From contig DATNHT010000088.1 in the NCBI GenBank assembly GCA_035604815.1, positions 14,388 to 78,387 of the forward strand: a DNA stretch of 64,000 nucleotides. The letters run 5' to 3'. Under the pieces are notes generated by a model. It had not been told where the DNA came from. It saw nothing but the letters and a program-made list of their open reading frames with translations, and did not search any database. Both the position numbers and the translations under genes were made by a program. Shown here piece after piece: positions 6,380-46,002 of this stretch (its first letter is position 1; each line of letters starts with the position of its first letter). This stretch comes from Opitutaceae bacterium (lineage in GTDB: Bacteria > Verrucomicrobiota > Verrucomicrobiia > Opitutales > Opitutaceae).

Positions 6380-6465
6380 GGCGGTTAATTGTTTTAATTT
6401 TCGGATGGGCGGGATTCAATCGGCCGGGGCCCAAACAGATTACCCCGGTCGAAAGTGCGCCTTCG

Positions 6466-16636: not shown

Positions 16637-17638
16637 TCAGTTTGGCGCGACGGGCCGGCAGAGGGCGGCCAGGTTCGCCGCCGGCGTCGACGAGGGGATC
16701 TCGCAACCCGCGTTGACCATGAAGGGCTCGCCGGCTTCAGCATGACAGCGGCGAACGGCGGCCGCGATCGAGTCGAGCGATCCGCGCATGACGCATCCGA
16801 CGGGGTCGACGTTGCCAGCAAGCGCGACCTTCGGGCCGAGCACGCTGCGGGCCTCGGCGAGGCTGACCATGTGGTCGATGTCCATGATGTCCAGGCCGAG
16901 CGTCGAGATGCCATGCAGAAGGTGCTTGATGTTTCCGCAGATGTGAAGCCGGACGTGGACGTTCATCCCGTGCAGGGCCGCCACGAGCCGCCGCTCGTGC
17001 GGCAGGATGAGGGATTCGTAGACCTTTGCCGAAACCTGGCTGGCAACCGCGTCGCCGATGCCGATCGTGTCGGCGCCGGCGGCGACCTGCGGCCGGGCGA
17101 AGTCTATCGCAGTTTCAACGCAGCGGGCCATCAGCGCGTTTGCGTAGGCCGGGTCATCGAGCAGGTCCATGAAGAAATTCGACACCCCGCGCAGATCGGC
17201 CGCCTCGGCCGCCGGCCCCTCCACCCAGCCCATGATCGAGAAGCGGTCGCCCGCGCGCGCCCTGTAGGCGCGCACGGCCTCGATGCGGTCGCGCATGCGC
17301 GGCGCCTGCAGGGGGTCGGGCCGCGGCAGCTTCGCGACATCCGGATCCCCCTCAAGCGGCGGCCTGAGGCAGATGGGCACCCCGTCGCGGGGAAACTCGA
17401 TCGGCGCGCCGAAGCCCGCCGTCTCCCGGTAGGGATCGGACATCGTGTTGAGCTGGTCGATGCCGAATTCCTCGGCGCAGCGCAGATTGGCCTCGACCAG
17501 CACCCGGTAATCCGACGCGAAGAGGCCGTAGTGGGAGCCGATATGCTCGGCGGCAAACTGCATCAGGATCGGCAGCCGGGGCAGCACGTCGGGCCGCCCG
17601 CCGCTAAGGACCGCCAGATAACGCTCGCGCGGGGTCAT
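16637..17638 (-). CDS. URO-D-family methylcobamide methyltransferase (MtaA/CmuA-like, MT2 candidate)
   Basis: 333 aa URO-D fold. Zn-ligand pattern LHICGN ... AGCEIP as in MtaA/MtbA-type enzymes. Sits in an operon with MtaB/MtaC homologs. Confidence 0.8.
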   Translation of the reverse strand: MTPRERYLAVLSGGRPDVLPRLPILMQFAAEHIGSHYGLFASDYRVLVEANLRCAEEFGIDQLNTMSDPYRETAGFGAPIEFPRDGVPICLRPPLEGDPDVAKLPRPDPLQAPRMRDRIEAVRAYRARAGDRFSIMGWVEGPAAEAADLRGVSNFFMDLLDDPAYANALMARCVETAIDFARPQVAAGADTIGIGDAVASQVSAKVYESLILPHERRLVAALHGMNVHVRLHICGNIKHLLHGISTLGLDIMDIDHMVSLAEARSVLGPKVALAGNVDPVGCVMRGSLDSIAAAVRRCHAEAGEPFMVNAGCEIPSSTPAANLAALCRPVAPN

Positions 17639-18201
17639 GGAAAAAGGGGTGGGCCGGCTGCGGCGCGCAGGTCCGGGCGAGGCTCGCTTCCGGCTGGATT
17701 CGGCACGACTCGGTCCGCGCGCTCAAGCAGCTCGGCCTGGAACGGCGACAGGGCGTGCTCCCGCCGCGCCATGTCCCATGATCGGTCCAGGCAGACGGTG
17801 AGTTCCCGCTGCCAGCCGAGTTCCCGGTCAAACTCCGCCAGCAGGCCCGCGGCCGCCACGGCCGGCACCTCGACAAAGATCCGGTTCGGGCGCTCGGACG
17901 CCACGAGGGCGCGCACCGCCCCGGGAAGGTCGGCAAGGGCCGCACAGCAGGTGCACGGCAGGAGGATCCGCCGCACGCTAACGCCCGGAGTTCTCTGGGC
18001 AAATCCCTCCATGCGCGTGCGCCCCTCCTCGGCGAGAACGGCTGGGCAGCGGGCGCCGGGCTCTCTCTCCGCCGCCTCGTGAATCTGCAGCTGCAGCCAG
18101 CGGGTCTTGCCGGACCCGCGGGGCCCGGTCACGAAGATGCAGTGCGGCCGCGTTTCCGGGGCAGGGGTCTCGCGCCACTGGAGTGAAGGTCCGGCGTGCA
18201 T
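17635..18201 (-). CDS. Small P-loop NTPase with CxCC motif (minimal CobW/COG0523-like G3E protein)
   Basis: Walker A FVTGPRGSGKT, then LPCTCCAAL (CxCC) and IFVEVPAVAAAG. Only 188 aa, so the C-terminal CobW domain is absent. Confidence 0.6.
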   Translation of the reverse strand: MHAGPSLQWRETPAPETRPHCIFVTGPRGSGKTRWLQLQIHEAAEREPGARCPAVLAEEGRTRMEGFAQRTPGVSVRRILLPCTCCAALADLPGAVRALVASERPNRIFVEVPAVAAAGLLAEFDRELGWQRELTVCLDRSWDMARREHALSPFQAELLERADRVVPNPAGSEPRPDLRAAAGPPLFP

Positions 18202-18213
18202 CGCCTCACCCCT

Positions 18214-19599
18214 TTACGCCACTTGGAGTTCGTACTCCGCCGGCAGGTACTTGGCCGGGTCGGCCAGGGACATCTGCCGGGCGATGAATGCGGCCTCGTC
18301 GGACGGCAATTCGTCAAGCTGGGCCGCCATCGAGTCGAGGAAGCCGAGCTCTCGCGGGACGATCTTGAGCGAGCCCGCGGCGTGGCCTGCGCGCAGGAGG
18401 TCGAGGGCGCAGCGCGCCGCGGCGACGCCCGCGTGAAAATGGTCCGGCGCGGCCACGATCGAGCGGGCGATCGCCAGGACGCTTTCGGGTCTTAGCACCC
18501 ATGCCTGGGGATCGAGTCCCGCGTCGGAATCGACGAGCCAGCGGCGCAGCGTGAGGGCGGCGGTCTTCCCCTCGGCCAGGGCCCGGTTCATCAGACGGCA
18601 GTCGTAGATCAGCTGCTCCATGTAGCAGGTCGGTGCCATGCCGGCAAGAAGGCGGACATTCTGCACGGACTCGTTGGACCACGTGTCCGCATAGGCGGCG
18701 GCAATGTTGCCGAGGGGGCTGAAGTGCGCGCAGGCGGATGTCTTGCCTTCCATCGCCATCGGGCAGCCGGTGATCGCCTTTAGGTAGGGGTTCTCGTACG
18801 CGCAATCCTTGCCGGGGCCTATGGCGCCGTATTCGTAGGCGACGAGCGTGCGCACGGTCGTGACGGCTCGCACGACGGCGGCAAAGACCCGGGGGATCAT
18901 CCTTTGCTCGGCAAGCACCATCGCGGTGTTGCCGAAGCCGCAGGCGGTGTCGCCCGCGCAAACGGCCCCATGGCGGCGCGCGACGGCGGCGATGTGCTTC
19001 CACAGGAATTCCATGTCGCGCACGCCGAGCACGCACAGCGCGAAGATCACCTGCCCGAGATCGCAGTTCATCAGGGCCTCGTCGTGCAGCTCCTTGCCGC
19101 CCACCGATTCGATGCTGAGCAGCTCCGCTCCGGCTCGGGCCGAGCCCTCGAACAGCTCCAGCATCCGCTCCCAGTGCATGCCCGAGCGCATGACCGGCGG
19201 GCGGGCGAACTCCCGGTTGTCGTTGGGCGTCATGCGCAGCGCCGTCGGAAGGCCGAATTGGCGGCGGGCATCCTCCATGCCGGCAAGGAGCACCCGCACT
19301 ATCTCGATGCCGAAGGCCGGCGTGGCGGTCATGGGCGGCAAAGTCTCGAACTCGATGATGACGCCGGGAGCCTCGAGCTCGGCCGCGCGGCGCAGGGCGT
19401 CCTTTACGATCTCCTTGTAGTGGCGGACGACGGCGGGCATGGTCGCCTCCGCGACCTCCATAGGGGGCAGCGTGAAATTGAGCTCCGGGTAAACCAGTCC
19501 GCCGCCCAGGCGCAGCCCCTGTCGGGTCACGAGGGGCTTGGGCGCGGTGCCGAAGAGCAGGTCGTCCGCGTTGGTGATCGCAAGGCTTTGGTATTTCAT
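18214..19599 (-). CDS. mtaB: Methanol:corrinoid methyltransferase MtaB homolog
   Basis: 461 aa. From memory it aligns along its length with Methanosarcina MtaB: LSIESVGGKE, AGDTACGFGNTAM, LVAYEYGAIGPGKDCAYEN, KAITGCPMAMEGKTSACAH, WSNESV, YDCRLMN. Confidence 0.85.
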   Translation of the reverse strand: MKYQSLAITNADDLLFGTAPKPLVTRQGLRLGGGLVYPELNFTLPPMEVAEATMPAVVRHYKEIVKDALRRAAELEAPGVIIEFETLPPMTATPAFGIEIVRVLLAGMEDARRQFGLPTALRMTPNDNREFARPPVMRSGMHWERMLELFEGSARAGAELLSIESVGGKELHDEALMNCDLGQVIFALCVLGVRDMEFLWKHIAAVARRHGAVCAGDTACGFGNTAMVLAEQRMIPRVFAAVVRAVTTVRTLVAYEYGAIGPGKDCAYENPYLKAITGCPMAMEGKTSACAHFSPLGNIAAAYADTWSNESVQNVRLLAGMAPTCYMEQLIYDCRLMNRALAEGKTAALTLRRWLVDSDAGLDPQAWVLRPESVLAIARSIVAAPDHFHAGVAAARCALDLLRAGHAAGSLKIVPRELGFLDSMAAQLDELPSDEAAFIARQMSLADPAKYLPAEYELQVA

Positions 19600-19664: not shown

Positions 19665-20300
19665 TTACGCGAACCCCACGAGCGCGCGGGCCTTGTCGGC
19701 GGCCGAGGCCGCATCGGGGGCGTATCCGTCAGCCCCAATCTCGTCGGCGAACTCCTGGCTGACCGGCGCCCCTCCCACCAGGATCTTGACCGGCGGGCCG
19801 CCGGCAGCGCGGATCGCCTGCACCGTCTCGACCATGGCGGGCATTGTCGTCGTCAGGAGCGCGGAAAGACCGACCACCTGCGGCCGGAACTCGTTGATCG
19901 CGGTCACGTACTTGGCGGCAGGTACGTTCGCTCCCAGGTCGATGACGCGGAAGCCGGTCGCCTTCAACATGACAGCCACCAGGTTCTTGCCTATGTCGTG
20001 CAGGTCGCCCTTCACCGTGCCGATCAGGGCCGTGTACTTGGGTGTGATGCCCGCGGCGGCCAGCCGCGGCTCCAGCAGGCTCATCGCCTCCTTCATCGCG
20101 CGGGCCGCGACGAGCATCTCCGGAACGAATATCTCGTTGTTCTTGAACTTCTCGCCCACCGCGGCCATCGCGGGGACCAGGGCCTTGTCAACGAGGTCGA
20201 TCGGCATGGCTCCCTCGTCGAGGGCCCGTTGCGTGAGGGCCTTGGCGTCCTTGCTCTTGCCGGCGGCGACGGCTTCGGAAAGCAGTTCAAACGTTGTCAT
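19665..20300 (-). CDS. mtaC: Corrinoid (cobalamin-binding) protein, MtaC-like
   Basis: B12-binding cap helix bundle plus a Rossmann domain with the DxHxxG motif (GDLHDIGKN), SALLTT and VGGAP. Confidence 0.9.
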   Translation of the reverse strand: MTTFELLSEAVAAGKSKDAKALTQRALDEGAMPIDLVDKALVPAMAAVGEKFKNNEIFVPEMLVAARAMKEAMSLLEPRLAAAGITPKYTALIGTVKGDLHDIGKNLVAVMLKATGFRVIDLGANVPAAKYVTAINEFRPQVVGLSALLTTTMPAMVETVQAIRAAGGPPVKILVGGAPVSQEFADEIGADGYAPDAASAADKARALVGFA

Positions 20301-20476: not shown

Positions 20477-22108
20477 TCAGGGAAGGACCAGCTGGTCGAT
20501 GTAGGCGTCCTCGAATCCGGGCTGAAGGTTGAGTTCAATCGCCTCCATGGCGCGGCACGCCGCGCTCATCTCCCCCAGAAGGCTGCGGTCGTTCAGGGCC
20601 AGGTAGGCCCCGCCGAGCGAGGTGTTGCCGACCACCTGAATCTGATCGGCCGTGAAACCCGGGAGCAGGCCGCAGCCGATCGCGTGCTCCAGCGACAGGT
20701 AGAAGCCGAAGCCGCCGGCGAGATAGAGGCGCTTCACGTCGCGCGCCTCGGTGCCCAGCAGGTGAAGCAGCGTCGAAGCGCCTGCCGCAATGGCGGCCTT
20801 GGCCTGCAGGAGCCGGGCGACATCCAATTCGGACACCCAGACCGGCCCCGAGGCGCCGTGGGCATGTAGCCGCAGCTTGCGCCCCTGGGCGTCGGCGTGA
20901 ACCGCGTCGCCCGCGCCCGAGCAGAACGCCGCGTCAAAGCGGCCGTTGGCCTGCAGGATCCCCTTGCGCCGGGCCTCCCAGAGGAAGTCCACGTAGGCCG
21001 AGCCGCAGATGCCGATCGGCCTCTCGGTCGCACCGATGATGCCGAGATCCGCCGCAAAAGGTTCCGTCCGCAGCCGCACGCGCTCGATCGCGCCGCGGAC
21101 CGCGCGGGTGCCGCTTGTCAAGCCGGCGCCCTCGAACGCGGGCCCGGCGGCGGTGGCGCAGCCGACAAGGCGGCCGCCCACCTTCGCGATGATCTCGCCG
21201 TTCGTGCCCACGTCGATGAGCAGCGCCGGGCCGTCATCGTAGAGAAGGCCCGTGGCGACCATGCCGGCGGCAAGGTCGGCCCCCACGTAGGCCGCGGGTC
21301 CCGGCAGCAGGTGCACCTGCGCGGCGGCGTCGCCAAACTCGAGGCCGAGGTCCCGCGGCTGATAGGTGCGGTGCTCCAGGAAGACGGGCCGGAACGGATG
21401 GACGCCCATGGGCGTCGGGTCCACGCCCGCCAGCAGGTGGAGCATGGTGGTGTTCGCGGCGACGCTCATCGCGCCGACGTCGCTTGGGGCCACGCCGGAC
21501 TGGCGGCACGCATCGCCGAGCAGCGGGGCAATCGTCTCCTTCGCGACGGCGCGCTGCAGCTGACCGAGCGCCTCCGGGTCGGTGGTGCACCGCTGGATCC
21601 GCGTGAGCACGTCCTCCCCGAAGCGTATCTGGGCGTTGAATGCCGAGGCCTGCCCGATCACCCCGCCGGTTGCGAGGTCGCAGAGCAGCAGGGAGACCGT
21701 GGTCGTGCCGATGTCCACGGCGGCGCCGTAGCGCGCCTCAGGGACCAGCGGGTCGCGCGCCCAGGGAATGTTGATGCGAAACTCCGATACCACGGCCGGC
21801 TCGTGGCGCAGCAGCGAACGCGCTGGAAGCGCCAGCTCGATGCTCTCGCCGCCCAAGCGCATCTGGCATGACTTGACGCACGCCGTGGCGTCGGCGCCGA
21901 CGCGGGCGTCATCGGCGGCGCTCCGCAGCGAACCCGCGCGCAGCCCGACCTCGCAACCTCCGCACAGCCCGCGCCCGCCGCAGCGCATGTTCAGGGGAAA
22001 ATCGAGGCGCGCGAGCAGTTCGGAAAGCGGCAGCGCGGCCTCGGCGCCCGCGACGGAGAGATCGAACTGCCCGTCGGGCGTGTGGAGGAGGATGCGGGCA
22101 GCGGCCAT
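20477..22108 (-). CDS. RACE-type corrinoid reductive activase (2Fe-2S ferredoxin domain + ASKHA/DUF4445 ATPase)
   Basis: N-terminal CGGRGLCGGCEV...C plant-type ferredoxin motif. The ASKHA phosphate loop AVDIGTTTV and LIDVGTNGE are typical of RACo/AcsV-like activators. Confidence 0.85.
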   Translation of the reverse strand: MAAARILLHTPDGQFDLSVAGAEAALPLSELLARLDFPLNMRCGGRGLCGGCEVGLRAGSLRSAADDARVGADATACVKSCQMRLGGESIELALPARSLLRHEPAVVSEFRINIPWARDPLVPEARYGAAVDIGTTTVSLLLCDLATGGVIGQASAFNAQIRFGEDVLTRIQRCTTDPEALGQLQRAVAKETIAPLLGDACRQSGVAPSDVGAMSVAANTTMLHLLAGVDPTPMGVHPFRPVFLEHRTYQPRDLGLEFGDAAAQVHLLPGPAAYVGADLAAGMVATGLLYDDGPALLIDVGTNGEIIAKVGGRLVGCATAAGPAFEGAGLTSGTRAVRGAIERVRLRTEPFAADLGIIGATERPIGICGSAYVDFLWEARRKGILQANGRFDAAFCSGAGDAVHADAQGRKLRLHAHGASGPVWVSELDVARLLQAKAAIAAGASTLLHLLGTEARDVKRLYLAGGFGFYLSLEHAIGCGLLPGFTADQIQVVGNTSLGGAYLALNDRSLLGEMSAACRAMEAIELNLQPGFEDAYIDQLVLP

Positions 22109-22141: not shown

Positions 22142-24433
22142 TCAGAACTCGTCGTAGGCGATCTGGCTGGCCGGGACGCCAATCTCGGCGAGCATCTTGT
22201 TGCACGCCCTCACCATCGCCGGCGGGCCGCAGAGGTAATACTCGGCGGCCTTTGGATTCGCGTGCCCGAGCAGGTGGTGCTCCCGCACAACCTCGTGGAT
22301 GAGGCCGGTGTGGCCCCGCCATTCGTCCTCGGCAAGCGGCGAGGAGAGGGCCAGGTGAAAGCTGAAGTTCTGATGAATCCCCTCGAGATGCTTGAAGTAG
22401 CTCTCGTAGAATATCTCCTGCCTCGAGCGCGCTCCGTACCAGAAGCTGACCCTGCGGGCGGTCCCTTCAGTCTCAAGGAGGTGGGACAGGTGCGCCCGCA
22501 AGGGGGCCATGCCGGCGCCGCCGCCGATGTAGACCATTTCCTTTCCCGTGGGCTTTATATGGAAGTCGCCGAAGGGTCCGATCGCGGTGACGGTGTCGCC
22601 GGCCTTCAGGTTGAACACGTAGGCGGAGCCGACGCCGGGCGGGCAGTCCTGTCCCGGGGGAGGGGTCGCAATGCGCACGTTGAAGCGCAGGGAGCGTTCG
22701 AGCCGCTGGTTGCTTGCGATGGAGTAGTTGTTGCGCCGGCCCGTTTCCGGGTTGCGGGCGACGAGGTCGAACACGTGCTGATTCCTCCATACGGTCGCAT
22801 AGGGTTCCGGGATATCAAACTCGCGGAAACGGATGAGGCCGTACGAGGGTATGTCGACCTGCAGGTAGTCACCCGGGGTGAAGGCGATGTCCTCGGCCGG
22901 TTTGGCGGGCTCGAGCACGAGCTCCTTGATGAAGGTGGCCACGTTGGCGTTGCTCACCACCCTGAGGCGGTAGGTCCTCTGGGCGCGCGCGCCCGCTCCG
23001 CCGGGCTTGAGGACGTTAAGGTGGAGGCGGCCGCCGCGCTCCTCGATAGGGTAGGTGGCAAGGCCGCGGCAGACCGGGGCGCGCGCCGGCGATCCGTCGG
23101 CGAGGTTGTAGCGGCCGTTGTGCTTCGGGCACTCGATGATCTTTCCCTTGACGAGGCCGTCCGTGAGGAGGGTGTTGCCGTGCGTGCACAAGGCGTCGGT
23201 CGCATAGAGCCTGCGCTCGGCGTCCCGGTAGAGGGCGTAGGTCTTCTTGCCGTGGTCGAAGCGGATGACATCCGCCGGGCCCAGGTCGGCGGCGGCGCAG
23301 ACCTCGACCCAGCCCTGCGCATCGGCGCTCGAGACGCTCGAATAGGTTGCACCCGGATCGGCCTTCCGGGGCCTGGGCGGCGGGATCCGGCGTTTGACGC
23401 AGTAGGTGGGATCCTTGACCTGCCTGAGAACGGCGGGGATGATCTCGCGCCAGGCGGCAAGCGTGCTCGGGTAGGCGGCGGGCATGTCGTCCCTCACCAG
23501 CTCGTGCAGGCGGGGGAGCGCATGGTAGGGGACCAGGGGGAACATGTGGTGCTCCGTGTGGTAATTCATGTTCCAATACAGGTAGCGGTTGACGAGATTC
23601 ATGTGCACCGTCCGGCAGTTGAGGCGGTGATCGAGGACGTTCTCGGCCAGGCCGGCGTGCTGCGTCAGCCCGTAGACTGTCGCCAGCCACGCGCCGAAGA
23701 GGTTCGGGAGGCCCACGTAGAGGAGCGGCAGGATGCTTCGGGTATAGATCGCGAGGCCGACCACGGACGCGTAAACGAGGACGTAGACGCGGGCCCTGCG
23801 GTAGATCTTCGGGAATTCGCTTTCGGGGATGAAGGTCTTCTCGTCGGCGCCCATGCGGCCGAAGGAATGCATCACGATGTGCTTAAAGTACCTCGGGTAC
23901 ACCGGAAGGCCAAAGAAGCCCATGATGAACTTCTTCAGATCCGGCGGCCGGGGCACCGCGATCTCGGGGTCGCGGCCGACGATGATGGTGTCGCTGTGGT
24001 GGCGGGTGTGGCTCCAGCGCCACACGGTCGACTCCCGCATGATCATGAACGACGCGATCTCGTAGAGCGCGTTGTTCATCCAGTCGGTCCTGAAGGCCGT
24101 GCCGTGCCCGGACTCATGCCAGCGCGAGTCGGAGGAGGAGCCGTAGAGGGCGGCGTAGACCCCGAACGGAAGGATCGCCCACCATGATCCCCAGAGGGCG
24201 CATGTCGCCCAGCCGGAGGCGAAGATGAGGGCAAACCAGATCAGCGTGTCGCGGACGGCCGGGCCGTTGCGGCGCTCCAGGAGCTTGCGCATCGTGGCGC
24301 GCGGGACGGGGCATTGGTACCAGTCGGCCTCGGCGAGGCCCTTCTCGACGGCGAGCGCCGCATTCACGCCAACGAGGCTGTAGTCCAGCTTGGCGGGCTT
24401 CAAAGATGCGGTGGCGGCGGCGTCGTGGCTCAT
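22142..24433 (-). CDS. Three-domain fusion: membrane di-iron fatty-acid-desaturase/hydroxylase domain + Rieske [2Fe-2S] ferredoxin + FNR/NqrF-like FAD/NAD(P)H reductase
   Basis: His boxes HESGH, HTRHH and HTEHH; Rieske CTHG...CPKH; reductase RNNYSIAS...GGAGMAP...CGPPAM. The ATG at 24433 (MSHDAAATAS) was chosen; the upstream 129 codons in the ORF track overlap the DUF1638 gene. Confidence 0.85.
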   Translation of the reverse strand: MSHDAAATASLKPAKLDYSLVGVNAALAVEKGLAEADWYQCPVPRATMRKLLERRNGPAVRDTLIWFALIFASGWATCALWGSWWAILPFGVYAALYGSSSDSRWHESGHGTAFRTDWMNNALYEIASFMIMRESTVWRWSHTRHHSDTIIVGRDPEIAVPRPPDLKKFIMGFFGLPVYPRYFKHIVMHSFGRMGADEKTFIPESEFPKIYRRARVYVLVYASVVGLAIYTRSILPLLYVGLPNLFGAWLATVYGLTQHAGLAENVLDHRLNCRTVHMNLVNRYLYWNMNYHTEHHMFPLVPYHALPRLHELVRDDMPAAYPSTLAAWREIIPAVLRQVKDPTYCVKRRIPPPRPRKADPGATYSSVSSADAQGWVEVCAAADLGPADVIRFDHGKKTYALYRDAERRLYATDALCTHGNTLLTDGLVKGKIIECPKHNGRYNLADGSPARAPVCRGLATYPIEERGGRLHLNVLKPGGAGARAQRTYRLRVVSNANVATFIKELVLEPAKPAEDIAFTPGDYLQVDIPSYGLIRFREFDIPEPYATVWRNQHVFDLVARNPETGRRNNYSIASNQRLERSLRFNVRIATPPPGQDCPPGVGSAYVFNLKAGDTVTAIGPFGDFHIKPTGKEMVYIGGGAGMAPLRAHLSHLLETEGTARRVSFWYGARSRQEIFYESYFKHLEGIHQNFSFHLALSSPLAEDEWRGHTGLIHEVVREHHLLGHANPKAAEYYLCGPPAMVRACNKMLAEIGVPASQIAYDEF

Positions 24434-25224
24434 GGGATGGGCTGGGAAGAGGCGGCGCCCGCGGGCACCGCCCTTACGATATTGGCATCGGCGGTGTGCG
24501 CAATCCGCTCGCCGGGATGCACGACCAGGAACCGCTCGCTGTCCCAGGGTCCGTGCAGCAGGTCGCGCATGAGCGTGGCGTCGCCGGCATGATCCTTGAA
24601 ACGCCAGCCGAGGGACCTCGCGCATTGCTCGGCGTAGCGCCGGTCCTCGTCGTCGCCGGGCAGACCGAGGTCCGTGTACCCAGCGGTTGTATGCTGCGCG
24701 AAGGCCGAGCGTTCCATCTCCAGCAGGGCCTCGACCTCCTCGGCGTCGAACTTCAGCGCATACTCCGCGCGCAGCTTCGCCTCGCGCTCGGGTCCGGGCA
24801 CCCGCCGGGCCCAGTTCCATCCCGGCGAATACCAGTAGGTTCCCGGCTCGTCGCGCATCTGCGCGGCGTACCGCTCCTTGCTGCCGAGAAAGAGCGTGAT
24901 ACAGTCGTGCGCCCGGGCCACCACGAGCGGGCAGCGGCGCGGGGCGAGGTCCATCAGCGCGAGGCCGCAGAGCCCGTATACAAGCACGACCTGGTGCACC
25001 GCAGGGTCGTCTTCCGCCCGGCCGATGGCGCCCGCGAGCAGCGAGCGCAGCCCGGTCGGCCGATCGTGCAGGCCGATTTCAAGAAACTCCCGCCGCACGA
25101 TGTGCGTGGCGCCCTGCGTCAGGGCCGCAATTTCCGACTCGAGCACGCGGCAGGCGATCAGGGCGAGGCCGGGCTGCGGATTTGGCCGCGGCTCTGGCAT
25201 AGGGAGGCCGCTCATGGGGCCCAT
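24430..25224 (-). CDS. DUF1638 domain protein
   Basis: LALIACRVLESEI...EFLEIGLHDRP...VVLVYGLCG...VVARAHDCITLFLGS resembles DUF1638. Its stop overlaps the start of the fusion gene (ATGA). The start may instead be 25215 or 25203. Confidence 0.65.
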   Translation of the reverse strand: MGPMSGLPMPEPRPNPQPGLALIACRVLESEIAALTQGATHIVRREFLEIGLHDRPTGLRSLLAGAIGRAEDDPAVHQVVLVYGLCGLALMDLAPRRCPLVVARAHDCITLFLGSKERYAAQMRDEPGTYWYSPGWNWARRVPGPEREAKLRAEYALKFDAEEVEALLEMERSAFAQHTTAGYTDLGLPGDDEDRRYAEQCARSLGWRFKDHAGDATLMRDLLHGPWDSERFLVVHPGERIAHTADANIVRAVPAGAASSQPIP

Positions 25225-26624
25225 CCCTGTTCGATTTGCTCGAGCGTGCGGCCCTTGGTTTCAGGAACGAACCGCCCGACCACCAGCACCAGCACGGCGC
25301 AAAACGCCGCGTAGACGTAGAATGGAAACGCATGGTTGAGCTGGCGCACGAACCACGAGTCCCTCGCATCCATCAACGGGAAGGTCTGCGTCACGGCGTA
25401 GTCGGCTGTCCAGAGGAAGAAGGTCGCCAGCCCCAGCGCGCGGCCGCGCACGGAGGTGGGGAAGATCTCCGCCAGGATCACCCAGGTCACGGGCCCGACC
25501 GAGAGCCCGAAGGCGGCGATGTAAAGAACGATGAAGAGCAGCATCCAGCCGCTTGTCGCGCTCGGGTCGGTCATGCGCTGGGCCATCGCGCCCATGGCCA
25601 CCAGGCTTACACCCATGCCGGCGGCGCCGAGGAACATGAGCGGGCGCCGGCCCCATTTGTCCACGGTTGCGATGGCAACCAGCGTGAAGAGGACGCCCGC
25701 GCCGTTGATGATGACCTGCTGCAGCAGTCCCGCGTCCACTCCCGTGGAGGCGCTCATGGTCCTGAATATGGTGGCGCCAAAATACATGAAGACATTGATC
25801 CCGGTAACCTGCTGGAGGACGGCCAGAGCGATGCCTAGGAGCAGCGGCCGGCGCAGCTGGCGGGAGAGGAGCGCCCCCCAGGTCCCCTGTTCCCGGGAAA
25901 TCGCGTCCCTGATGCTCGCTAGCTCGTCTTCGGCGAACTTCTCGCCCGCAACTTTCCCTAGGATGGTCTTCGCCCGTCCCTCGAGCTTCATCTCGATCAG
26001 CCAGCGCGGGCTCTCGGGTATCTGCAGGAGCAGGAGGCCGAACAGCACGGAGGGCACGACACCGGTCGCGAACATCCAGCGCCAGCCGGTGGAGATGAGC
26101 CACGCCTGGTCACCGCCCCGGGAGATGAAGTAATTGACGAACGAGGTCGCCGCGATCCCCCCGACGATGGCGATCTGGTTGACGGCGACCATCCGTCCGC
26201 GGACATGCGCCGGGGTGATCTCGGCGATGTACATCGGCGTGGAGATCGAGGCGATGCCGATGGCCACGCCGCCGAGAAAGCGGAAGGCGATGAAGACGCC
26301 GATCACCTGCGGGAGCGCGGTGCCGATGGCTGAGGCGAAGAACATGACTGCGGAGAGGAACAGGGCGGGCTTGCGCCCGAATCGGTCCGAGAGGGGGCCG
26401 ACGAGCAGCACGCCCGCCGCGCACCCGATGAGCACGCAGCCCGACGCCCAGCCCTTCATGAAGTCGCCCAGGCCGAAGCGGGCGGTCAACGGCTCTATCG
26501 CGCCCGAGATGACGCCGGTGTCGTAGCCGAAGAGCAGGCCCCCGAGCGTCGCGACCAGGCAGATCGGCACCAGGTAGCGCAGGTTGACCGGGGGCGGCAG
26601 GGGAGAATGGGGGGGCTCGGGCAT
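25212..26624 (-). CDS. MFS sugar-porter family transporter (XylE/GalP/IolT-like)
   Basis: GGLLFGYDTGVISGAI, SDRFGRK, PESPRWL, the PETKGRTLEQIE tail and 12 TM segments. Confidence 0.9.
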   Translation of the reverse strand: MPEPPHSPLPPPVNLRYLVPICLVATLGGLLFGYDTGVISGAIEPLTARFGLGDFMKGWASGCVLIGCAAGVLLVGPLSDRFGRKPALFLSAVMFFASAIGTALPQVIGVFIAFRFLGGVAIGIASISTPMYIAEITPAHVRGRMVAVNQIAIVGGIAATSFVNYFISRGGDQAWLISTGWRWMFATGVVPSVLFGLLLLQIPESPRWLIEMKLEGRAKTILGKVAGEKFAEDELASIRDAISREQGTWGALLSRQLRRPLLLGIALAVLQQVTGINVFMYFGATIFRTMSASTGVDAGLLQQVIINGAGVLFTLVAIATVDKWGRRPLMFLGAAGMGVSLVAMGAMAQRMTDPSATSGWMLLFIVLYIAAFGLSVGPVTWVILAEIFPTSVRGRALGLATFFLWTADYAVTQTFPLMDARDSWFVRQLNHAFPFYVYAAFCAVLVLVVGRFVPETKGRTLEQIEQGWAP

Positions 26625-26636: not shown

Positions 26637-27899
26637 TCAGCGGCCGGCGCTGTCGCGGATGGCCCGGAACATGGCGAGCATGTTGTCCATCGGAGTGGGT
26701 CCCTGGACGTTGTGGATGGCGTTGAAGACGAATCCTCCGTCGGGGGCGAAGGTGTCGATCCGCTCCCGGCACTGCCGATAGACCTCGTCGGGTGTGCCGA
26801 AGGGCAGCGTGTGCTGGGTGTCGATCCCGCCGCCCCAGAAGACGATGTCGCGCCCGAATTCCTGCTTCAGGCGGGCCGGATCCATCTCGGCGGCGGAGCA
26901 CTGCACGGGGTTGAGGATGTCGAAGCCGGAGGCGATGAAGTCCTGGATCAGGGGATAGACGTCGCCGCAGGAGTGGATGAACGTCTTCCAGGACGAGTGG
27001 CGGTGGATCAGGTCGTTGAGCCTGCGGTGGAAGGGCTGGTAGAGGGTGCGGTAGGCTTCGCGCGAGATGAACGGCCCGCGCTGGGTGCCGAAGTCCGTGC
27101 CCGTGAGCAGGGCGACCTGCACCGTGTCGCCGAACAGGTCGATCAGCGTGCGCAGGTTGCGCTCCGCGAGCGCGCATTGCCGCTCGAAGACCTCCAGGAT
27201 ATAGTCCCGGCGCGCGACGGTGGAGACATACCACTCCTCGATGTCGCGGATTCCCCTTGGGTTCTTGAGGGACGGCGCGGGCACCAGCGCGATGTCCCCG
27301 AACGCGGCGCCGGGGATCACCAGGAGGGCGCCGAGGTCGCCGCGTTCCTCGAACCAGCGTTTTTGCGCGCGATAGAAGCCGAGGTCGGACTCGTTCAGGA
27401 GCGCAAACTCCTCAAGGTTGTCCGCGGGGTCGAGCCGGTCTTCGTCGATGGGCGGCTGGCGGATGATCGAGTCAAAGAAATAGCCGCCGTCGGGCATGTG
27501 GCCGCTCGGCACGACGGACGTGTCCCCCTCGGGATAGATATGCCAGCCGCCTTCGGGGGCGCGGGTGACATTGAACATCCCGGGCACCAGGCATTCGGTG
27601 CCGTCGAAGAGGGTGAACGGCTTCCAGTCGCGCGACTCCGTGCCGAAGATGGACCTGCGCCCCAGCACCCCGATGACGTCGATCGGCAGGGCCGCCCGCA
27701 GTTCGTCGTCGACCTCGCCGAGCATCTGATAGGGCTCGTTGACCCTCACCCTAAAGCCTTTATCGCCGAGCAGGTGGCGGCGGATGCGGGTCACGGCGGA
27801 GACATGGATGCCGGTCACAAACGAGGCGCCGAAGTCGACGGCAACTCGGTCGGGGGTTGAATGGGCCAGGGAGGCCGCGAGACGCTGTCGTCCAGTCAT
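26637..27899 (-). CDS. Long URO-D (uroporphyrinogen-decarboxylase) family protein, function unknown
   Basis: 420 aa with TDFGTQRGPFISREAYR...FIHSCGDVYPLIQDFIASGFDILNPVQ...GGFVFNAIHNVQ. Has the URO-D fold, but the distal Cys of the MtaA Zn site is not evident. Confidence 0.75.
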   Translation of the reverse strand: MTGRQRLAASLAHSTPDRVAVDFGASFVTGIHVSAVTRIRRHLLGDKGFRVRVNEPYQMLGEVDDELRAALPIDVIGVLGRRSIFGTESRDWKPFTLFDGTECLVPGMFNVTRAPEGGWHIYPEGDTSVVPSGHMPDGGYFFDSIIRQPPIDEDRLDPADNLEEFALLNESDLGFYRAQKRWFEERGDLGALLVIPGAAFGDIALVPAPSLKNPRGIRDIEEWYVSTVARRDYILEVFERQCALAERNLRTLIDLFGDTVQVALLTGTDFGTQRGPFISREAYRTLYQPFHRRLNDLIHRHSSWKTFIHSCGDVYPLIQDFIASGFDILNPVQCSAAEMDPARLKQEFGRDIVFWGGGIDTQHTLPFGTPDEVYRQCRERIDTFAPDGGFVFNAIHNVQGPTPMDNMLAMFRAIRDSAGR

Positions 27900-27948: not shown

Positions 27949-28106
27949 AAATACATATCCCGGGCGACAAGTCGTGTTTGACAGCGCCGGCCCGTCGGGC
28001 AAGCCGGAGGCCATGCGCAACTACCATGGAATGGAGATCGCCTGGGCAAACCGGCTCGTGCAGACCTCGCGGGTCGACTTTGGGCGCGTCAAATATATCC
28101 CGGGCG
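27949..28106. repeat. Direct repeat AAATA(C/T)ATATCCCGGGCG, two copies (27949..27966 and 28091..28106), at the AraC/operon divergent region
   Basis: 14 of 16 positions are identical when right-aligned, including an AT-rich stretch that is rare in this GC-rich DNA plus the palindromic CCCGGG. Copy 1 is intergenic and copy 2 lies in the first ~40 codons of the AraC gene. Confidence 0.35.
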
Positions 28107-28831
28107 GCTATTGCGGGCCCCGGCGCCAGCGCGACTACCAGCTCGTGGTCCTGCAGGCGGGCGGGGCGCGTGTGACCGTGGACGACGAGACGCTGATCCT
28201 CCCTGCGGAGCATGCGGTGCTCTTCCTGCCCGGCCACAGGGAGCATTTCGTCTTTTCTGCCGAACAGGGCACCGAGCACGTCTGGTGCTCGATCCGGCCC
28301 CGCTTCATGCCGGTCGAGCTGAGGTGGCGGCTGGCGCGGGCGCCGCGGATGGCGCCATGCTCGGAGTTGATGCACCGCCTCTTCGCGGCGGCGCAGGGAT
28401 GCCGCCGCGTGACCAGCCTGGCCGCCGGGCGCGTGGTGGAGCACCTCGGTCTGGCCCTGTTTGCGGAGTTCCTGCACCAGACCTCGCTCTGGCCGCACCG
28501 GGCGCAGCGGGACGAGGGGCTCTCCCGCGCCATGGCCTGCATCGAGGAGCACTTTGGGGACGAGGATTGCCTGGCGCGCGCCCGGCAGGCGGCGCTGTGC
28601 TCGGAAAGCGGGCTCAACCAGCGGTTCCGGAGATACCTCGGCACGAGTCCGGCGCGCTATCTCTGGCTGACCCGGGTCGAGCGCGGCGTCGCAATGCTGC
28701 GCGACACGGGACTGACGGTGGCGGAGGTCAGCGCGCGCTGCGGGTGCAAGAACCCGTTCCACTTCTCGCGCCTGGTGAAGCGCAACCAGGGCATGTCACC
28801 GCGCGAGGTGCGCCGCGTGGCTTGGCAATGA
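27974..28831 (+). CDS. AraC-family transcriptional regulator (cupin sensor + HTH_18)
   Basis: C-terminal AraC HTH (SGLNQRFRRYLGTSPARYL...VAEVSARCGCKNPFHFSRLVKRNQGMSPREVRR). Divergent from the operon at 27899. The start could instead be the ATG at 28013. Confidence 0.85.
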   Translation: MFDSAGPSGKPEAMRNYHGMEIAWANRLVQTSRVDFGRVKYIPGGYCGPRRQRDYQLVVLQAGGARVTVDDETLILPAEHAVLFLPGHREHFVFSAEQGTEHVWCSIRPRFMPVELRWRLARAPRMAPCSELMHRLFAAAQGCRRVTSLAAGRVVEHLGLALFAEFLHQTSLWPHRAQRDEGLSRAMACIEEHFGDEDCLARARQAALCSESGLNQRFRRYLGTSPARYLWLTRVERGVAMLRDTGLTVAEVSARCGCKNPFHFSRLVKRNQGMSPREVRRVAWQ

Positions 28832-31218: not shown

Positions 31219-31374
31219 CGCGGGAAGGGTCGGACAGGTCCCCTGGGTTTGGCTCGAAGCCGCCGGGACCGGGTGGGGGCCGGGTCCCGGTGCTCCTCGC
31301 CCGCGAACGCTGGACTCCCCCTCGACTTTTGCGCGGGCCCCGGGTATGAGTTCGGCGCCGCGGATCGATTCCTG

Positions 31375-32436
31375 ATGCCGCGATTCCTCCCATTGAACGG
31401 CGTGCCCCAGTGTCCCGTGCCCATCTTTGAAAGGTCCGAAATCACCATCGGCCACGGCGGGGGCGGACAGCTTACCGAGGAGCTGATCGACGGGATCTTC
31501 CGGCCGGCGTTCGCCAATCCCGCCCTGGAATGCCGGCAGGATGGCGCCGTCCTGGAGGCCGGCGGCGCCCGGCTTGCCTTCACCACCGACGCGCACGTGG
31601 TGAGCCCGCTTTTCTTTCCGGGGGGCGACATCGGCAGGGTCGCCGTAAACGGCACCGTCAACGACCTCGCCATGTGCGGCGCCCGGCCGCTATGGCTGAG
31701 CGCCGGATTTATCCTCGAGGAGGGCCTGCCGATCGACACCCTCCGCCGGGTGGCGGCGTCCATGAGCGCGGCGGCCGCGGCAGCGGGGGTCGCGATTGTC
31801 ACCGGGGACACCAAGGTCGTCGAGCGCGGCAAGGGCGACGGGCTGTACGTGACGACTGCGGGCGTCGGCCTGATCGAGCGTGGCCTCGCCATCGGGCCCG
31901 CGCAGATAAGGGTGGGCGACGCCGTCATCCTCAGCGGGGATGTCGGACGCCATGGCATGGCCATCATGGCGGTCCGCGAGGGCCTCGCCTTCGAAGGCCC
32001 GATCGAGAGCGACTGCGCGCCGCTGGCGTCGCCGGTCGCGGCGCTCCTGGAGGCTGGGCTGGACGTGCATTGCCTGCGCGACCTCACGCGGGGGGGCCTC
32101 GCGACGGCCCTAATCGAGCTGGCCGAGGCGCGAGGGGCCGTGATCGCGATCGAGGAGCGGGCCGTGCCGGTCAGCGAGGCGGTGCGCGGGGCGTGCGAGA
32201 TTCTCGGGCTGGAGCCGCTTTATGTCGCGAACGAAGGGCGCTTTGTCTGCTTCGTTCCCGAGGCGGATGCGCCCATGGCCCTCGGGGTGCTTGCCCGCAC
32301 GGCACCGGGCGGGCCGCCGAGGGTCATCGGCCGGGTGCGCTCGTCGTCCGCAGGAGAGGTCTCGATGCGCAGCGTGATTGGCTCAGAGCGGATCCTGCAC
32401 CGCCTGAGCGGCGAGCAGCTGCCGAGGATTTGTTAG
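31375..32436 (+). CDS. hypE: Hydrogenase maturation protein HypE
   Basis: AIR-synthase-like fold (ITIGHGGGG, TTDAHVVSPLFFPGGDIG) and the diagnostic C-terminal PRIC motif. Confidence 0.9.
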   Translation: MPRFLPLNGVPQCPVPIFERSEITIGHGGGGQLTEELIDGIFRPAFANPALECRQDGAVLEAGGARLAFTTDAHVVSPLFFPGGDIGRVAVNGTVNDLAMCGARPLWLSAGFILEEGLPIDTLRRVAASMSAAAAAAGVAIVTGDTKVVERGKGDGLYVTTAGVGLIERGLAIGPAQIRVGDAVILSGDVGRHGMAIMAVREGLAFEGPIESDCAPLASPVAALLEAGLDVHCLRDLTRGGLATALIELAEARGAVIAIEERAVPVSEAVRGACEILGLEPLYVANEGRFVCFVPEADAPMALGVLARTAPGGPPRVIGRVRSSSAGEVSMRSVIGSERILHRLSGEQLPRIC

Positions 32437-32476
32437 GGTTGGTGCAAAGAAACCCCCAAGAAAAGAGGATAAAAGG

Positions 32477-32716
32477 ATGAAGTCGCAAATCATAGGCCTC
32501 AAGGTCGCAAGCGTGCTGTTCATGCTCGTGGCGCTGGCGCATGCGGCTCGGCTGGTGTTCGGCTGGAAGGTGCAGATCGGCGAGCATGCCTTCGGGCTGT
32601 TGCCAAGCGTCGTCGCGCTGTTGGTCGCGGGCGGACTCAGCGTCTGGCTGGGGACGCTCGCATGCGGCTGCAAGACGGACGCGGCCTCCCCGCCGTCCGC
32701 GGCGCCGAAGGCCTGA
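32477..32716 (+). CDS. Small two-TM membrane protein, hypothetical
   Basis: 79 aa with two hydrophobic helices. Purine-rich AGAGGATAAAAGG directly upstream of the ATG. Confidence 0.5.
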   Translation: MKSQIIGLKVASVLFMLVALAHAARLVFGWKVQIGEHAFGLLPSVVALLVAGGLSVWLGTLACGCKTDAASPPSAAPKA

Positions 32717-32723
32717 TCGCGTG

Positions 32724-33830
32724 TCAGGCCACGGAATCCGCCCGCGCCCGGAGGCGATAGCGGAAATAGGCGGCGCAGGCGCCCTCGCTTGAGACCATCG
32801 GAGCGCCGATCGGGTGCTCCGGGGTGCACCGCGTGCCGAAAGCCGGGCAATCGAACGGCTTCTTCAATCCCCGAAGGATCTCGCCGCTGATGCATTCGCC
32901 GGCGGGCGCCGGCGCCGGGACCCCGAGGCTGAACTTGTGCGGCGCATCGTACGCGGAGTACTTTTCCCTTAGGCTCCAGCCGCTACCCGGTATGGAGCCG
33001 AGCCCCCGCCAGTTGCGGTCGACCACCTCGAACACCTCGTCCACGATCGCGCGGGCCGCCGGGTTGCCCCCGGACCGCACCACGCGAGCGTAGGCGTTCT
33101 CGACCTCGGCGCGCCCGGACTCCAGCTGGCGCAGGCAGCGGTGCAGGCCCTCGAGGATGTCCACCGGCTCGAATCCCGTCACCACGATGGGCGCCTTGTA
33201 TTCCCGCGCGATCGGCCCGTACTCGGCCGTGCCCATCACCGCGCACACATGGCCGGCCGCGAGGAAACCCTGCACCAGGTTGTCCGGCGCCCCGAGGAGC
33301 GCGCGCATCGCGGGCGGCACAAGCACGTGGGAGACCACCATTGAAAAGTTGGACAGGCCCTCGCGGTGGGCGCGCAGGACCGCCATCGCGTTTGCGGGCG
33401 CCGTCGTCTCAAAGCCGACTGCGAAGAAGACCACCTGGCGCTCGGGATGCTCGCGCGCGAACCTTACCGCATCCAGGGGCGAATAGACCATGCGCACGTC
33501 CCCCCCCCGGGCCTTGGCCGTGAGCAGGTCGATTCCCGACCCCGGAACGCGGAGCATGTCGCCGAAGGAGCAGAGCGTCACGCCGGGACGGGCCGAAAGC
33601 TCGATCGCCTGATCGATCATCTCGGCCGGGGTCACGCAGACCGGGCACCCGGGCCCGTGCACCAGGGTGACGCCGGGCGGCAGCAATTCGTCCAGTCCGA
33701 ACTTGACAATGGCGTGGGTCTGGCCGCCGCAGATTTCCATCACGGTCCAAGGGCGCGTCGCCGTGCGGGCGATCGCGTCGGCGAGCGTCCTCACCAGGCC
33801 GGCGTCGCGGTATTCGTCCACGAACCTCAT
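32724..33830 (-). CDS. hypD: Hydrogenase maturation protein HypD
   Basis: MRFVDEYRD...MEICGGQTH...GPGCPVCV...FAVGFETT. The ATG at 33830 overlaps the hypC stop (ATGA). Confidence 0.9.
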
Positions 33831-34099
33831 GGCGGGCCCGGGGGTGCGGCCGGCTCGGGCTCGAGCCCCTCGAGCTCGCCCATGGCCCTGAGGTACCGGA
33901 ATGTCTCCTCGGCCTCGTCGGCGTCGACGACGCTGATCGCGACGCCGACGTGCACGAGCACGTAGTCGCCCGGCCGCGCCTCGGGGGCGCAGGCGAGGCT
34001 GACCTCCTTGATCACGCCCCCAAAGCTGACGCGCCCGCTGCGCTCCAGCGGGTCTTCGCCTTGGATGCTCAGAAGCTTTCCTGGGACGGCGAGGCACAT
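33827..34099 (-). CDS. hypC: Hydrogenase maturation chaperone HypC
   Basis: N-terminal MCLAVPGK motif, 90 aa. Confidence 0.9.
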
Positions 34100-34105
34100 G
34101 GCGGG

Positions 34106-36437: not shown

Positions 36438-36454
<17 letters not shown>
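34106..36454 (-). CDS. hypF: Carbamoyltransferase HypF
   Basis: Acylphosphatase domain ([14 protein letters not shown]), two CxxC Zn fingers (CRDC...CTQCGPR; CPAC...CPACGPR), and YrdC-like and Kae1-like domains. The true start may be 36433 or 36394. Confidence 0.9.
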
Positions 36455-37127
<673 letters not shown>

Positions 37128-37135
37128 GGTGCGGA

Positions 37136-37480
37136 TCAGGACAACTCGATCCGGGCCAGCTCCATCTCGCGGCCCTGCACCAGCTCGCCCGATATCCGGC
37201 CGCATCGGGGGCAGGTGAAGATGTAGTCCGACTCGACCCCGAATTCCAGGTCGCAGTCGACGCAGCGGCCGCGGGCCGGCACCGTCTCGAGCTCGAGTTC
37301 GGCCCCTGCCGCGGGCGTGCCCCTCACCGTGGCGTCAAAGGCGAGCCGGAGCGCGTCCGGATCAACGCCCGAGAGCGCTCCGATCCGCAGCACGATGCGG
37401 TGGATCTGGGTTGCGTCGTGCTCGCGAGCCTGGGCAACGACCGCCTCGATCGCGGTTTCCATGATTCCGACTTCGTGCAC
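37136..37480 (-). CDS. hypA: Hydrogenase nickel-insertion protein HypA
   Basis: MHEVGIM N-terminus and the CxxC...CPRC zinc site. Confidence 0.9.
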   Translation of the reverse strand: MHEVGIMETAIEAVVAQAREHDATQIHRIVLRIGALSGVDPDALRLAFDATVRGTPAAGAELELETVPARGRCVDCDLEFGVESDYIFTCPRCGRISGELVQGREMELARIELS

Positions 37481-38553: not shown

Positions 38554-38704
38554 GGCGACCAAAGGTATCATCTTGGCGCTCCGCGGACAACGCATGGATT
38601 GCCCATTTCTGTGCGATACTTGCGCAGCCATTTTCAGGCCCAGCGCAATATTTGTGCTGGAATTGGCAATAACTGCGTAGAGGGGACCCGGCGCCCATGG
38701 CATC

Positions 38705-44585: not shown

Positions 44586-46002
<1,417 letters not shown>

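Follow-up and report, generated by a model that had tools for sequence, protein, structure and literature searches.

The 64,000-nucleotide stretch of DNA analyzed here, referred to as the window, is part of contig DATNHT010000088.1 (positions 14,388 to 78,387) in assembly GCA_035604815.1 of an Opitutaceae bacterium (Verrucomicrobiota). One of its genes encodes a protein of 763 amino acids (aa) in which a membrane di-iron oxygenase, a Rieske ferredoxin and an NqrF-type reductase are joined in a single chain. Judged from its sequence and from the gene neighborhoods of its relatives, this fusion protein most likely uses NADH and O2 to remove the O-methyl group from a methylated sugar or cyclitol. 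The fusion gene is located in an operon with genes for corrinoid-dependent methyl transfer, and we consider it reasonably probable that the protein is a self-sufficient membrane monooxygenase of the MocD branch, which O-demethylates a sugar and represents the oxic counterpart of a corrinoid route for the same substrate.

Architecture of the fusion protein and its kinship with MocD and MocE

The initial annotation of the window had reported a single reading frame that combines an oxygenase with its whole electron transfer chain. The coordinates it gave are exact, the gene lies on the minus strand, and the FA_desaturase, Rieske, FAD_binding_6 and NAD_binding_1 domains all score above their curated cut-offs in one polypeptide with the predicted N-terminus MSHDAAAT. 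A longer in-frame reading frame that starts at 24820 was rejected, as the additional stretch is rich in arginine, overlaps the upstream gene and is absent from the homologs. The gene and its parts are:

22142..24433, minus strand: fusion gene for the 763-aa protein, stop codon 22142-22144 (Pfam, NCBIfam and homolog searches)
23465..24184, minus strand: FA_desaturase domain, aa 84-323 (PF00487, 119.6 bits against a cut-off of 29.7)
24104-24118, minus strand: His box HESGH (H106), by motif reading
23996-24010, minus strand: His box HTRHH (H142), by motif reading
23546-23560, minus strand: His box HTEHH (H292), by motif reading
23048..23311, minus strand: Rieske [2Fe-2S] domain, aa 375-462 (PF00355, 59.6 bits against 20.3)
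22145..22972, minus strand: NqrF-type FAD/NADH reductase domain, aa 488-763 (TIGR01941, PDB 7qty, Foldseek)

Two hydrophobic hairpins predicted in the oxygenase domain (aa 62-96 and 216-253) form the usual four-helix topology. The Rieske ligands follow the CxH...CxxH pattern (C416-T-H418 ... C435-P-K-H438, at 23120-23188), and the domain matches Rieske ferredoxins in the PDB with an E value of 1.8e-18. In the reductase portion, the Pfam domains FAD_binding_6 (aa 552-625, 24.8 bits) and NAD_binding_1 (aa 636-745, 60.1 bits) are accompanied by the motifs R567NNYS, G637GGAGMAP and C735GPP. These motifs, together with H106ESGH, H142TRHH, H292TEHH and C416THG...C435PKH, had been quoted in the initial annotation, and each of them is present. 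Catalysis with O2 at a di-iron center is an established trait of the FA-desaturase/AlkB superfamily. From its domains and motifs, the polypeptide is predicted to carry a membrane di-iron oxygenase and the full chain from NAD(P)H via FAD to the Rieske cluster.

The identical single-frame architecture of the 120 best database matches and of 80 orthologous loci rules out that an assembly or frameshift artefact merged separate genes. The 120 best matches, obtained from 5.8 billion proteins searched, are between 751 and 766 aa long. In a collection with one genome per species, relatives are encoded in at least 298 stretches from Verrucomicrobiota and Acidobacteriota. The locus counts below refer to the best 80 of these 298 stretches (70-83% identity, each aligning over nearly the whole query), which fall into 42 groups at 85% identity; individual loci are given L numbers. 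The 81 aligned orthologs without exception retain the eight His-box histidines, H259, H269 and the four ligands of the Rieske cluster. When 1.84 billion cluster representatives were searched exhaustively, three forms emerged: MocD-like proteins of about 350 aa that stand alone, oxygenase-Rieske two-domain fusions of about 480 aa (eight clusters), and the full triple fusions, which make up a single 50%-identity cluster. Our literature searches found no published description of the oxygenase-Rieske-reductase architecture.

Copies from Acidobacteriota (L016, L028-L037 and others) and Verrucomicrobiota (L009-L027) share 70-77% identity over 760 residues. Identity this high between phyla is unusual and suggests either lateral transfer or very strong constraint. 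Several metagenome-assembled genomes (MAGs) from lakes that contain the fusion gene are labeled 'Akkermansia muciniphila', which is probably a taxonomic mislabel.

The structure predicted for the fusion protein with AlphaFold2 from a diverse alignment has a predicted local distance difference test (pLDDT) score of 91.1. Another model, calculated from 46 close homologs (73-86% identity), was discarded, with a pLDDT of 64.5 and values below 50 in the di-iron domain. In a Foldseek comparison of the retained model to the PDB, the top 50 matches were all to the reductase domain and none to the oxygenase domain, and a sequence search of the PDB revealed no solved homolog of the oxygenase domain. The reductase domain superposes on NqrF with a TM-score of 0.97 at 44% identity, and the C-terminal 276 residues match PDB entry 7qty with an E value of 8.5e-76.

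The same protein, identical in sequence, is recorded from an Opitutaceae MAG (Verrucomicrobiota), where the NCBI pipeline labeled it 'NqrF'. The C-terminal 276 residues are indeed 42-45% identical to the FAD/NADH domain of NqrF; however, the N-terminal membrane helix and the plant-type [2Fe-2S] domain of NqrF are absent from the fusion. Because the oxygenase and the Rieske domain take the place of the helix and the plant-type ferredoxin, the name is a misannotation. The NqrF model TIGR01941 is matched at model positions 130-403 only, and its cut-off is passed (310 bits against 295) because the FAD/NADH domain alone scores high enough. No nqrA-E genes were found near the fusion gene, whose neighbors encode DUF1638 and RACo proteins in the window and sugar genes at other loci. 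The records P0001, P0030 and P0106 and many JGI records bear the name 'NADH:ubiquinone reductase (Na+-transporting) subunit F', a systematic misannotation.

A translated search of plasmids revealed neighboring genes of the mocD and mocE types to which aa 14-474 align as a single collinear block at about 55% identity. The former is annotated as 'fatty acid desaturase family protein', the latter as 'MocE family 2Fe-2S ferredoxin'. The matched pairs are located on Sinorhizobium pSymB and on a Burkholderia plasmid; a gene for an FAD-dependent oxidoreductase follows, the genes are under the control of a LacI regulator, and the Burkholderia cluster adjoins iolG and TIM-barrel genes. In S. meliloti 1021 the cluster is annotated as mocD, mocE and mocF (SMb20818-20820; PMC11387232). 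MocD has been described as an oxygenase that converts 3-O-methyl-scyllo-inosamine to scyllo-inosamine (PMC2593844), and mocDEF as a catabolic unit induced by rhizopine (PMC10107442). The His-box signature reported for MocD is HECxHRTAF, F[YF]RRYHxWHHRxT and WNMP[FY]HxEHH (PMC2593844). Boxes 1 (HESGHGTAF) and 3 (WNMNYHTEHH) of the fusion protein fit this signature, and box 2 fits in outline only (WRWSHTRHHSDT). The Rieske domain is nearest to the MocE family and to dioxygenase ferredoxins, and the MocE family model TIGR02377 is its best-scoring Rieske model. The collinear homology to mocD and mocE, the published moc annotation and the agreement in boxes 1 and 3 argue that the protein corresponds to MocD and MocE in one chain, with the MocF-type reductase apparently exchanged for an unrelated one of the NqrF/FNR type.

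Both systems share the type of membrane di-iron oxygenase, the type of Rieske protein, the O-demethylation reaction proposed for them, and neighbors from sugar or cyclitol catabolism (iolG and TIM-barrel genes in the case of MocDEF). They differ in that MocDEF are encoded by three separate genes, MocF is an FAD-dependent reductase of the glutathione-reductase type, the regulators are LacI or MocR rather than AraC, and the hosts are Proteobacteria, whereas the fusion is found in Verrucomicrobiota and Acidobacteriota and probably acts on an aldose, not on an inosamine. Neither mocA, mocB, mocC nor mocR was found among the neighbors of the fusion gene that we examined. What is new compared to MocDEF is the single chain, the swapped class of reductase, the different phyla and the aldose-type context.

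Oxygenases with a tethered redox partner are known from AlkB-rubredoxin and desaturase-cytochrome b5 fusions, P450 BM3 and RhF. As in these enzymes, the redox partner of the fusion protein is part of the oxygenase chain, and an external electron chain is not needed. However, in the AlkB-rubredoxin and desaturase-cytochrome b5 fusions only the immediate donor is attached, whereas here the chain includes a ferredoxin as well as an NADH reductase, and a Rieske protein serves as the donor.

Gene neighborhoods and the likely substrate

The gene neighborhoods differ from locus to locus, with sugar utilization as a common thread. A sugar porter of the major facilitator superfamily (MFS) is found near it in 12 of the 42 groups, and in 10 groups a GalM-like aldose 1-epimerase adjoins it directly on the same strand. 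A TIM-barrel-like protein of about 300 aa is encoded directly downstream, on the same strand, in nine groups (15 loci; e.g., L040:12289-13194). Searches of Pfam, NCBIfam and the PDB gave nothing above threshold for this protein, the best indication being a weak similarity to AP_endonuc_2 (E value 1.8e-4); it is likely a dedicated partner enzyme of the fusion. In 23 of the 80 loci, an AraC regulator gene lies beside the fusion gene, and a compact unit of an AraC gene followed by divergent GalM-like, fusion and TIM-like genes recurs; one example is the cultured isolate Verrucomicrobia bacterium IMCC26134 (CP011265.1, L040). The remaining neighbors include aldo-keto reductase, GFO_IDH_MocA, AP_endonuc_2, GH127, GH92, GHL6/fucosidase-like and ArfA-like arabinofuranosidase genes. 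In four loci from Acidobacteriaceae (L066, L072, L076 and L080) a glutathione-independent formaldehyde dehydrogenase is encoded one gene away from the fusion; the copy at L080:13227-14423 (minus strand) matches the FdhA equivalog with 705.9 bits against a cut-off of 637.

The mutarotase and the sugar porter among the neighbors suggest a free aldose as substrate, the nearby formaldehyde dehydrogenase suggests formaldehyde as product, and the homology to MocD suggests O-demethylation. A sugar methyl ether had been one of several substrates considered in the initial annotation; it belongs to the class that the neighbors and the MocD homology favor. A search of the literature for methyl-sugar or pinitol demethylases of the fusion type found nothing relevant.

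Methyl ethers of sugars, such as 2-O-methyl-xylose, 2-O-methyl-fucose, 3-O-methyl-hexoses, 4-O-methyl-glucuronate and 6-O-methyl-galactose, block ordinary catabolism. To our knowledge, a marine P450 is the only enzyme for which removal of the methyl group from a sugar ether has been established enzymatically. This 6-O-methyl-D-galactose demethylase of marine Bacteroidota works with a ferredoxin and a reductase (PMC6292453, PMC9400963). The likeness lies in the function proposed for the fusion: the methyl ether of a sugar is removed in an O2- and NAD(P)H-dependent reaction that yields formaldehyde and the free sugar, and the P450 genes lie within polysaccharide-utilization loci and are linked to formaldehyde detoxification. 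The proteins themselves are unrelated, since the P450 system consists of a soluble haem-thiolate enzyme and its partners, three separate proteins, whereas the fusion is a membrane di-iron enzyme with its redox partners attached.

The corrinoid operon and UROD420

The initial annotation had placed the fusion in a tight operon with corrinoid and Fe-S genes, and profile matches bear this out for RACo, the corrinoid protein, MtaB and the URO-D proteins. The operon comprises nine genes on the minus strand, from 27899 down to 16637, which overlap or are separated by at most 65 nt, except for one gap of 176 nt. Their order is UROD420, sugar porter, DUF1638, fusion, RACo, corrinoid protein, MtaB, CobW-like protein and MtaA-like URO-D protein. 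The other genes of the operon and further features of the window are:

26637..27899, minus strand: UROD420, a divergent 420-aa protein of the URO-D/MtaA superfamily, first gene of the operon (weak C-terminal PF01208/MtaA_CmuA match)
25212..26624, minus strand: XylE-like MFS sugar porter (Sugar_tr, 373.8 bits; sugar porter subfamily, 364.8 bits, above cut-off)
24430..25224, minus strand: DUF1638 protein (PF07796, 111.6 bits)
20477..22108, minus strand: RACo/AcsV-type reductive activator of corrinoid proteins (Raco_middle, RACo_C_ter; AcsV model, 339.5 bits)
19665..20300, minus strand: corrinoid protein with B12-binding_2 and B12-binding domains and a DLHDIG motif (profile matches, motif)
18214..19599, minus strand: MtaB-type methanol:corrinoid methyltransferase (PF12176, 535.7 bits)
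17635..18201, minus strand: CobW/HypB-like P-loop protein, 188 aa (PF02492, 35.6 bits)
16637..17638, minus strand: MtaA/CmuA-family URO-D protein, 333 aa, with an HIC motif; candidate MT2 (methyl-corrinoid:acceptor) methyltransferase (PF01208, 201.5 bits)
27974..28831, plus strand: divergent AraC-family regulator (Pfam)
31219-37334 and 44578-48944: HypE, HypF, HypB and NiFe hydrogenase large subunit with a Nuo51-type (HoxF-like) subunit
6367-7488: glycoside hydrolase GH26
53556-55799: glycoside hydrolase GH97

The stop codon of the DUF1638 gene and the start codon of the fusion overlap by 4 nt (ATGA, 24430-24433). The same overlap is found in the Opitutaceae relative L002, which suggests that the two genes may be translationally coupled. 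The XylE model scores 439.9 bits on the porter, below its cut-off of 608, and RACo has the N-terminal Cys motif typical of a [2Fe-2S] ferredoxin. MtaB aligns over its full length to MtaB of M. barkeri (2i2x), with the Zn ligands E164, C220 and C269 conserved. Most knowledge of methanol:corrinoid methyltransferases comes from methanogens and acetogens, and our literature searches found nothing relevant on MtaB in Verrucomicrobia; among the fusion loci, MtaB is present only in the window and in L002, L003 and L009 (one sister species). The CobW/HypB-like protein could be a metal or B12 chaperone; its gene is absent from the otherwise syntenic operons L002 and L009 of a related Opitutaceae species (83% identity). 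The 333-aa URO-D protein scores 149 bits with TIGR01463, below cut-off. A scan of the window against Rfam found no RNA family and hence no cobalamin riboswitch, and a scan of the operon for promoters and terminators found nothing above shuffled background.

The hydrogenase that had been reported for the window is present, with Hyp genes and a NiFe hydrogenase that includes a Nuo51-type subunit. The putative PFOR of the initial annotation corresponds to a reading frame of 1228 aa at 38681-42364. NAD-linked NiFe hydrogenases are not confined to strict anaerobes and are compatible with a facultative or microaerophilic life. The GH26 and GH97 genes indicate that the organism is a polysaccharide degrader.

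The initial annotation had further considered it unexpected that an O2-dependent enzyme is encoded among O2-sensitive corrinoid functions. The placement in the operon stands; the apparent paradox is less sharp than it had seemed. DUF1638 has a genetic link to B12 reactivation: together with RamA-like activators it is required for B12-dependent methionine synthesis in aerobic Phaeobacter (PMC5764234), and both are induced with the betaine demethylase MtgBCD in aerobic Ruegeria (PMC12478193). Since corrinoid systems with RACo/RamA and DUF1638 operate in aerobic Rhodobacterales, the paradox is weak. Furthermore, no corrinoid gene occurs within 10 kb of the fusion in 73 of the 80 orthologous loci, which we read as sugar-utilization loci from Acidobacteriota and Verrucomicrobiota, and linkage to corrinoid genes is therefore not a property of the fusion family. 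Conversely, L093 contains a relative of UROD420 (84% identity) in a five-gene operon with the order UROD420-DUF1638-RACo-corrinoid protein-URO-D, without porter, oxygenase or MtaB. The existence of this closely related operon suggests that the operon in the window is an L093-type core with three additions, and that the oxygenase is an add-on to a corrinoid operon.

The corrinoid-type gene that does recur near the fusion is UROD420, which is found in seven of the 80 loci: L009 (Opitutaceae), L011 (Verrucomicrobiota MAG), L058 (Chthoniobacterales), L075 and L084 (Puniceicoccaceae), and L067 and L079 (Acidobacteriota). In L067, L079 and L075 it directly adjoins the fusion gene. The order in L067 and L079 is URO-D-corrinoid protein-DUF1638-(RACo)-UROD420-fusion, and in L067 the genes for a sugar porter and GH92 come next. 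The fusion proteins of these loci are not each other's nearest relatives, and the gene orders differ. This suggests that the association arose or persisted at least five times, in two phyla, and the linkage between UROD420 and the fusion does not appear to be an accident.

UROD420 belongs to a large family with more than 8000 database matches. Its residues H309-S-C311, C334 and H396 are retained in at least 97% of 121 sequences, and this HxC...C...H motif resembles the Zn sites of MtaA and MetE; in the PDB, the only match is a marginal one to MtaA (4ay7, E value 0.73). In most contexts that we examined, UROD420 is paired with a sugar porter: the porter follows it directly in L089, L090, L091 and L092 and one gene further on in another contig, and the two genes are also adjacent in the window, L002, L003 and L009. 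A corrinoid protein is encoded directly before UROD420 in L092 and in the same operon in L093. UROD420 is thus a candidate methyltransferase (MT1) that would transfer the methyl group of an imported methyl-sugar to a corrinoid protein, an activity that would be new; no paper on corrinoid-dependent sugar demethylation was found in our literature searches. The operon in the window resembles the four-component corrinoid O-demethylases of anaerobes and MtaABC in that it encodes MT1 candidates (UROD420 and MtaB), a corrinoid protein, an MtaA-like MT2 and RACo. However, the substrates of the known systems are aryl methyl ethers, methanol and methylamines, and a sugar methyl ether would be new. We know of no such system with an oxygenase in its operon.

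Proposed mechanism, alternatives and significance

In the mechanism that we propose, the substrate, an O-methylated monosaccharide or possibly a methyl-cyclitol, would be imported by the adjoining sugar porter. As judged from domain homology, NADH would reduce the FAD in the C-terminal NqrF-type domain, and single electrons would pass from the FAD to the Rieske cluster, which sits where NqrF has its plant-type ferredoxin, and on to the His-ligated di-iron center in the N-terminal four-helix membrane domain. There, O2 would be activated and the methyl group hydroxylated, and the resulting hemiacetal would collapse to formaldehyde and the free sugar. The genomic context further suggests that a corrinoid route could remove the same methyl group without O2, using UROD420 as MT1, the corrinoid protein, the MtaA-like MT2, RACo and DUF1638, and that MtaB may feed methanol into the same corrinoid protein. 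More tentatively, the whole operon may be a methyl-harvesting unit in which two unrelated routes serve one substrate, with formaldehyde released when O2 is present, transfer by the UROD420-family corrinoid system to a one-carbon (C1) carrier when it is absent, and methanol added by MtaB to the same corrinoid pool; this is possible, and we would not call it probable. The architecture of the fusion, its conservation, the homology to mocD and mocE and the gene neighborhoods are observations; the notion of two routes for one substrate, like the formaldehyde product, is one that we infer.

Several observations weigh against assigning the fusion to sugar O-demethylation with a corrinoid counterpart. 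Sugar-type neighbors, as scored here, are lacking in 31 of the 58 larger loci; because about half of these loci have no sugar markers, we infer the substrate class rather than regard it as demonstrated. In a block of Acidobacteriaceae loci (L028, L046, L051 and L052; about 7-10 kb) only an esterase (PF00756) and a tetratricopeptide repeat (TPR) protein are encoded upstream and there is no sugar gene, a context that sugar demethylation does not explain. Reading this esterase as an S-formylglutathione hydrolase was rejected, as NCBIfam gave no support. The GFO_IDH_MocA and AP_endonuc_2 neighbors suit cyclitols equally well as aldoses, and the linkage to formaldehyde dehydrogenase is restricted to one lineage. 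The Rieske domain scores 108.6 bits with the MocE model, below the curated cut-off of 136.15. The function of MocDEF itself was deduced from genetics. On the corrinoid side, UROD420 is a candidate methyltransferase, and in L075 and L084, where UROD420 is located next to the fusion, no gene for a corrinoid protein was within reach.

The fusion could catalyze the same oxidative O-demethylation without any functional tie to the corrinoid genes, if a module of porter and oxygenase had landed in the operon and the two systems acted on separate substrates. The many loci without corrinoid genes would fit this explanation, as would the occurrence of the core operon without the fusion in L093 and of sugar porter and fusion together without corrinoid genes in L004. 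We nevertheless consider it rather unlikely, given that UROD420 recurs beside the fusion in at least five lineages, whereas a given gene would be found within 10 kb by chance in well under 1% of genomes; UROD420 is itself habitually paired with a sugar porter, and the fusion overlaps DUF1638 by ATGA in both the window and L002. If the two systems acted in sequence, the ring carbon that bears the methoxy group would be hydroxylated and the hemiketal would decay to methanol, taken up by MtaB, and a keto-sugar, which a reductase or isomerase would repair. Such a scheme would give the bona fide MtaB with its intact Zn ligands a role in the same operon, and elsewhere the fusion often has aldo-keto reductase, GFO_IDH_MocA or TIM-barrel isomerase-like genes as neighbors. 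We consider it improbable: MtaB is found with the fusion nowhere but in the window and in L002, L003 and L009, the C1 enzyme encoded beside the fusion elsewhere is a formaldehyde dehydrogenase and not a methanol-handling gene, and in the precedents, the P450 that acts on 6-O-methyl-galactose (PMC6292453) and the MocD model, it is the methyl group that is attacked.

Membership in the PF00487 superfamily and four predicted membrane helices could also be taken to indicate an enzyme of membrane homeostasis that desaturates or hydroxylates lipids or oxygenates alkanes or carotenoids. The initial annotation had named a housekeeping lipid role as a finding that would count against it, and we looked for one and found none: DesB, which comes first among the lipid-desaturase models, reaches a score of 38.7 where its cut-off is 500, the best 25 of 32 NCBIfam matches include no AlkB, CrtW or CrtR model, lipid, alkane and carotenoid genes do not recur among the neighbors, and His boxes 1 and 3 fit the MocD signature, so that such a role is very improbable. 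The position between DUF1638 and RACo, both tied to corrinoid reactivation, might instead suggest that the protein donates electrons to RACo, or that it is an NADH oxidase that protects the oxygen-labile cob(I)alamin system by scavenging O2. We give this explanation the least credence, since most copies of the fusion are far from any corrinoid gene and neither role would need a membrane di-iron domain with fully conserved substrate-oxidizing His boxes. For a donor, moreover, the potentials of Rieske ferredoxins are in general too high to reduce Co(II) to Co(I).

The family to which the fusion belongs is abundant in the databases and mostly mislabeled, and the NqrF label given by the NCBI pipeline and JGI can produce false calls of Na+-NQR in metagenomes. 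The fusion itself would be a compact biocatalyst that works without separate redox partners, and a single-chain model for the delivery of electrons to the poorly understood di-iron site of the desaturase/AlkB type. If oxidative sugar demethylation is its function, then a fused, NADH-driven di-iron demethylase in hundreds of Verrucomicrobiota and Acidobacteriota from soil, peat and freshwater would fill a gap in terrestrial carbon turnover. The strongest lead, a possible pairing of O2-dependent with cobalamin-dependent sugar demethylation, lies partly outside the coordinates of the fusion gene: the association of UROD420 with the fusion provides a concrete candidate for an O2-independent, cobalamin-dependent sugar demethylase. 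If true, the UROD420 route would extend cobalamin-dependent demethylation to an aliphatic sugar ether for the first time, and it would provide a new answer to how anaerobes and microaerophiles handle the methylated sugars of plants and algae.

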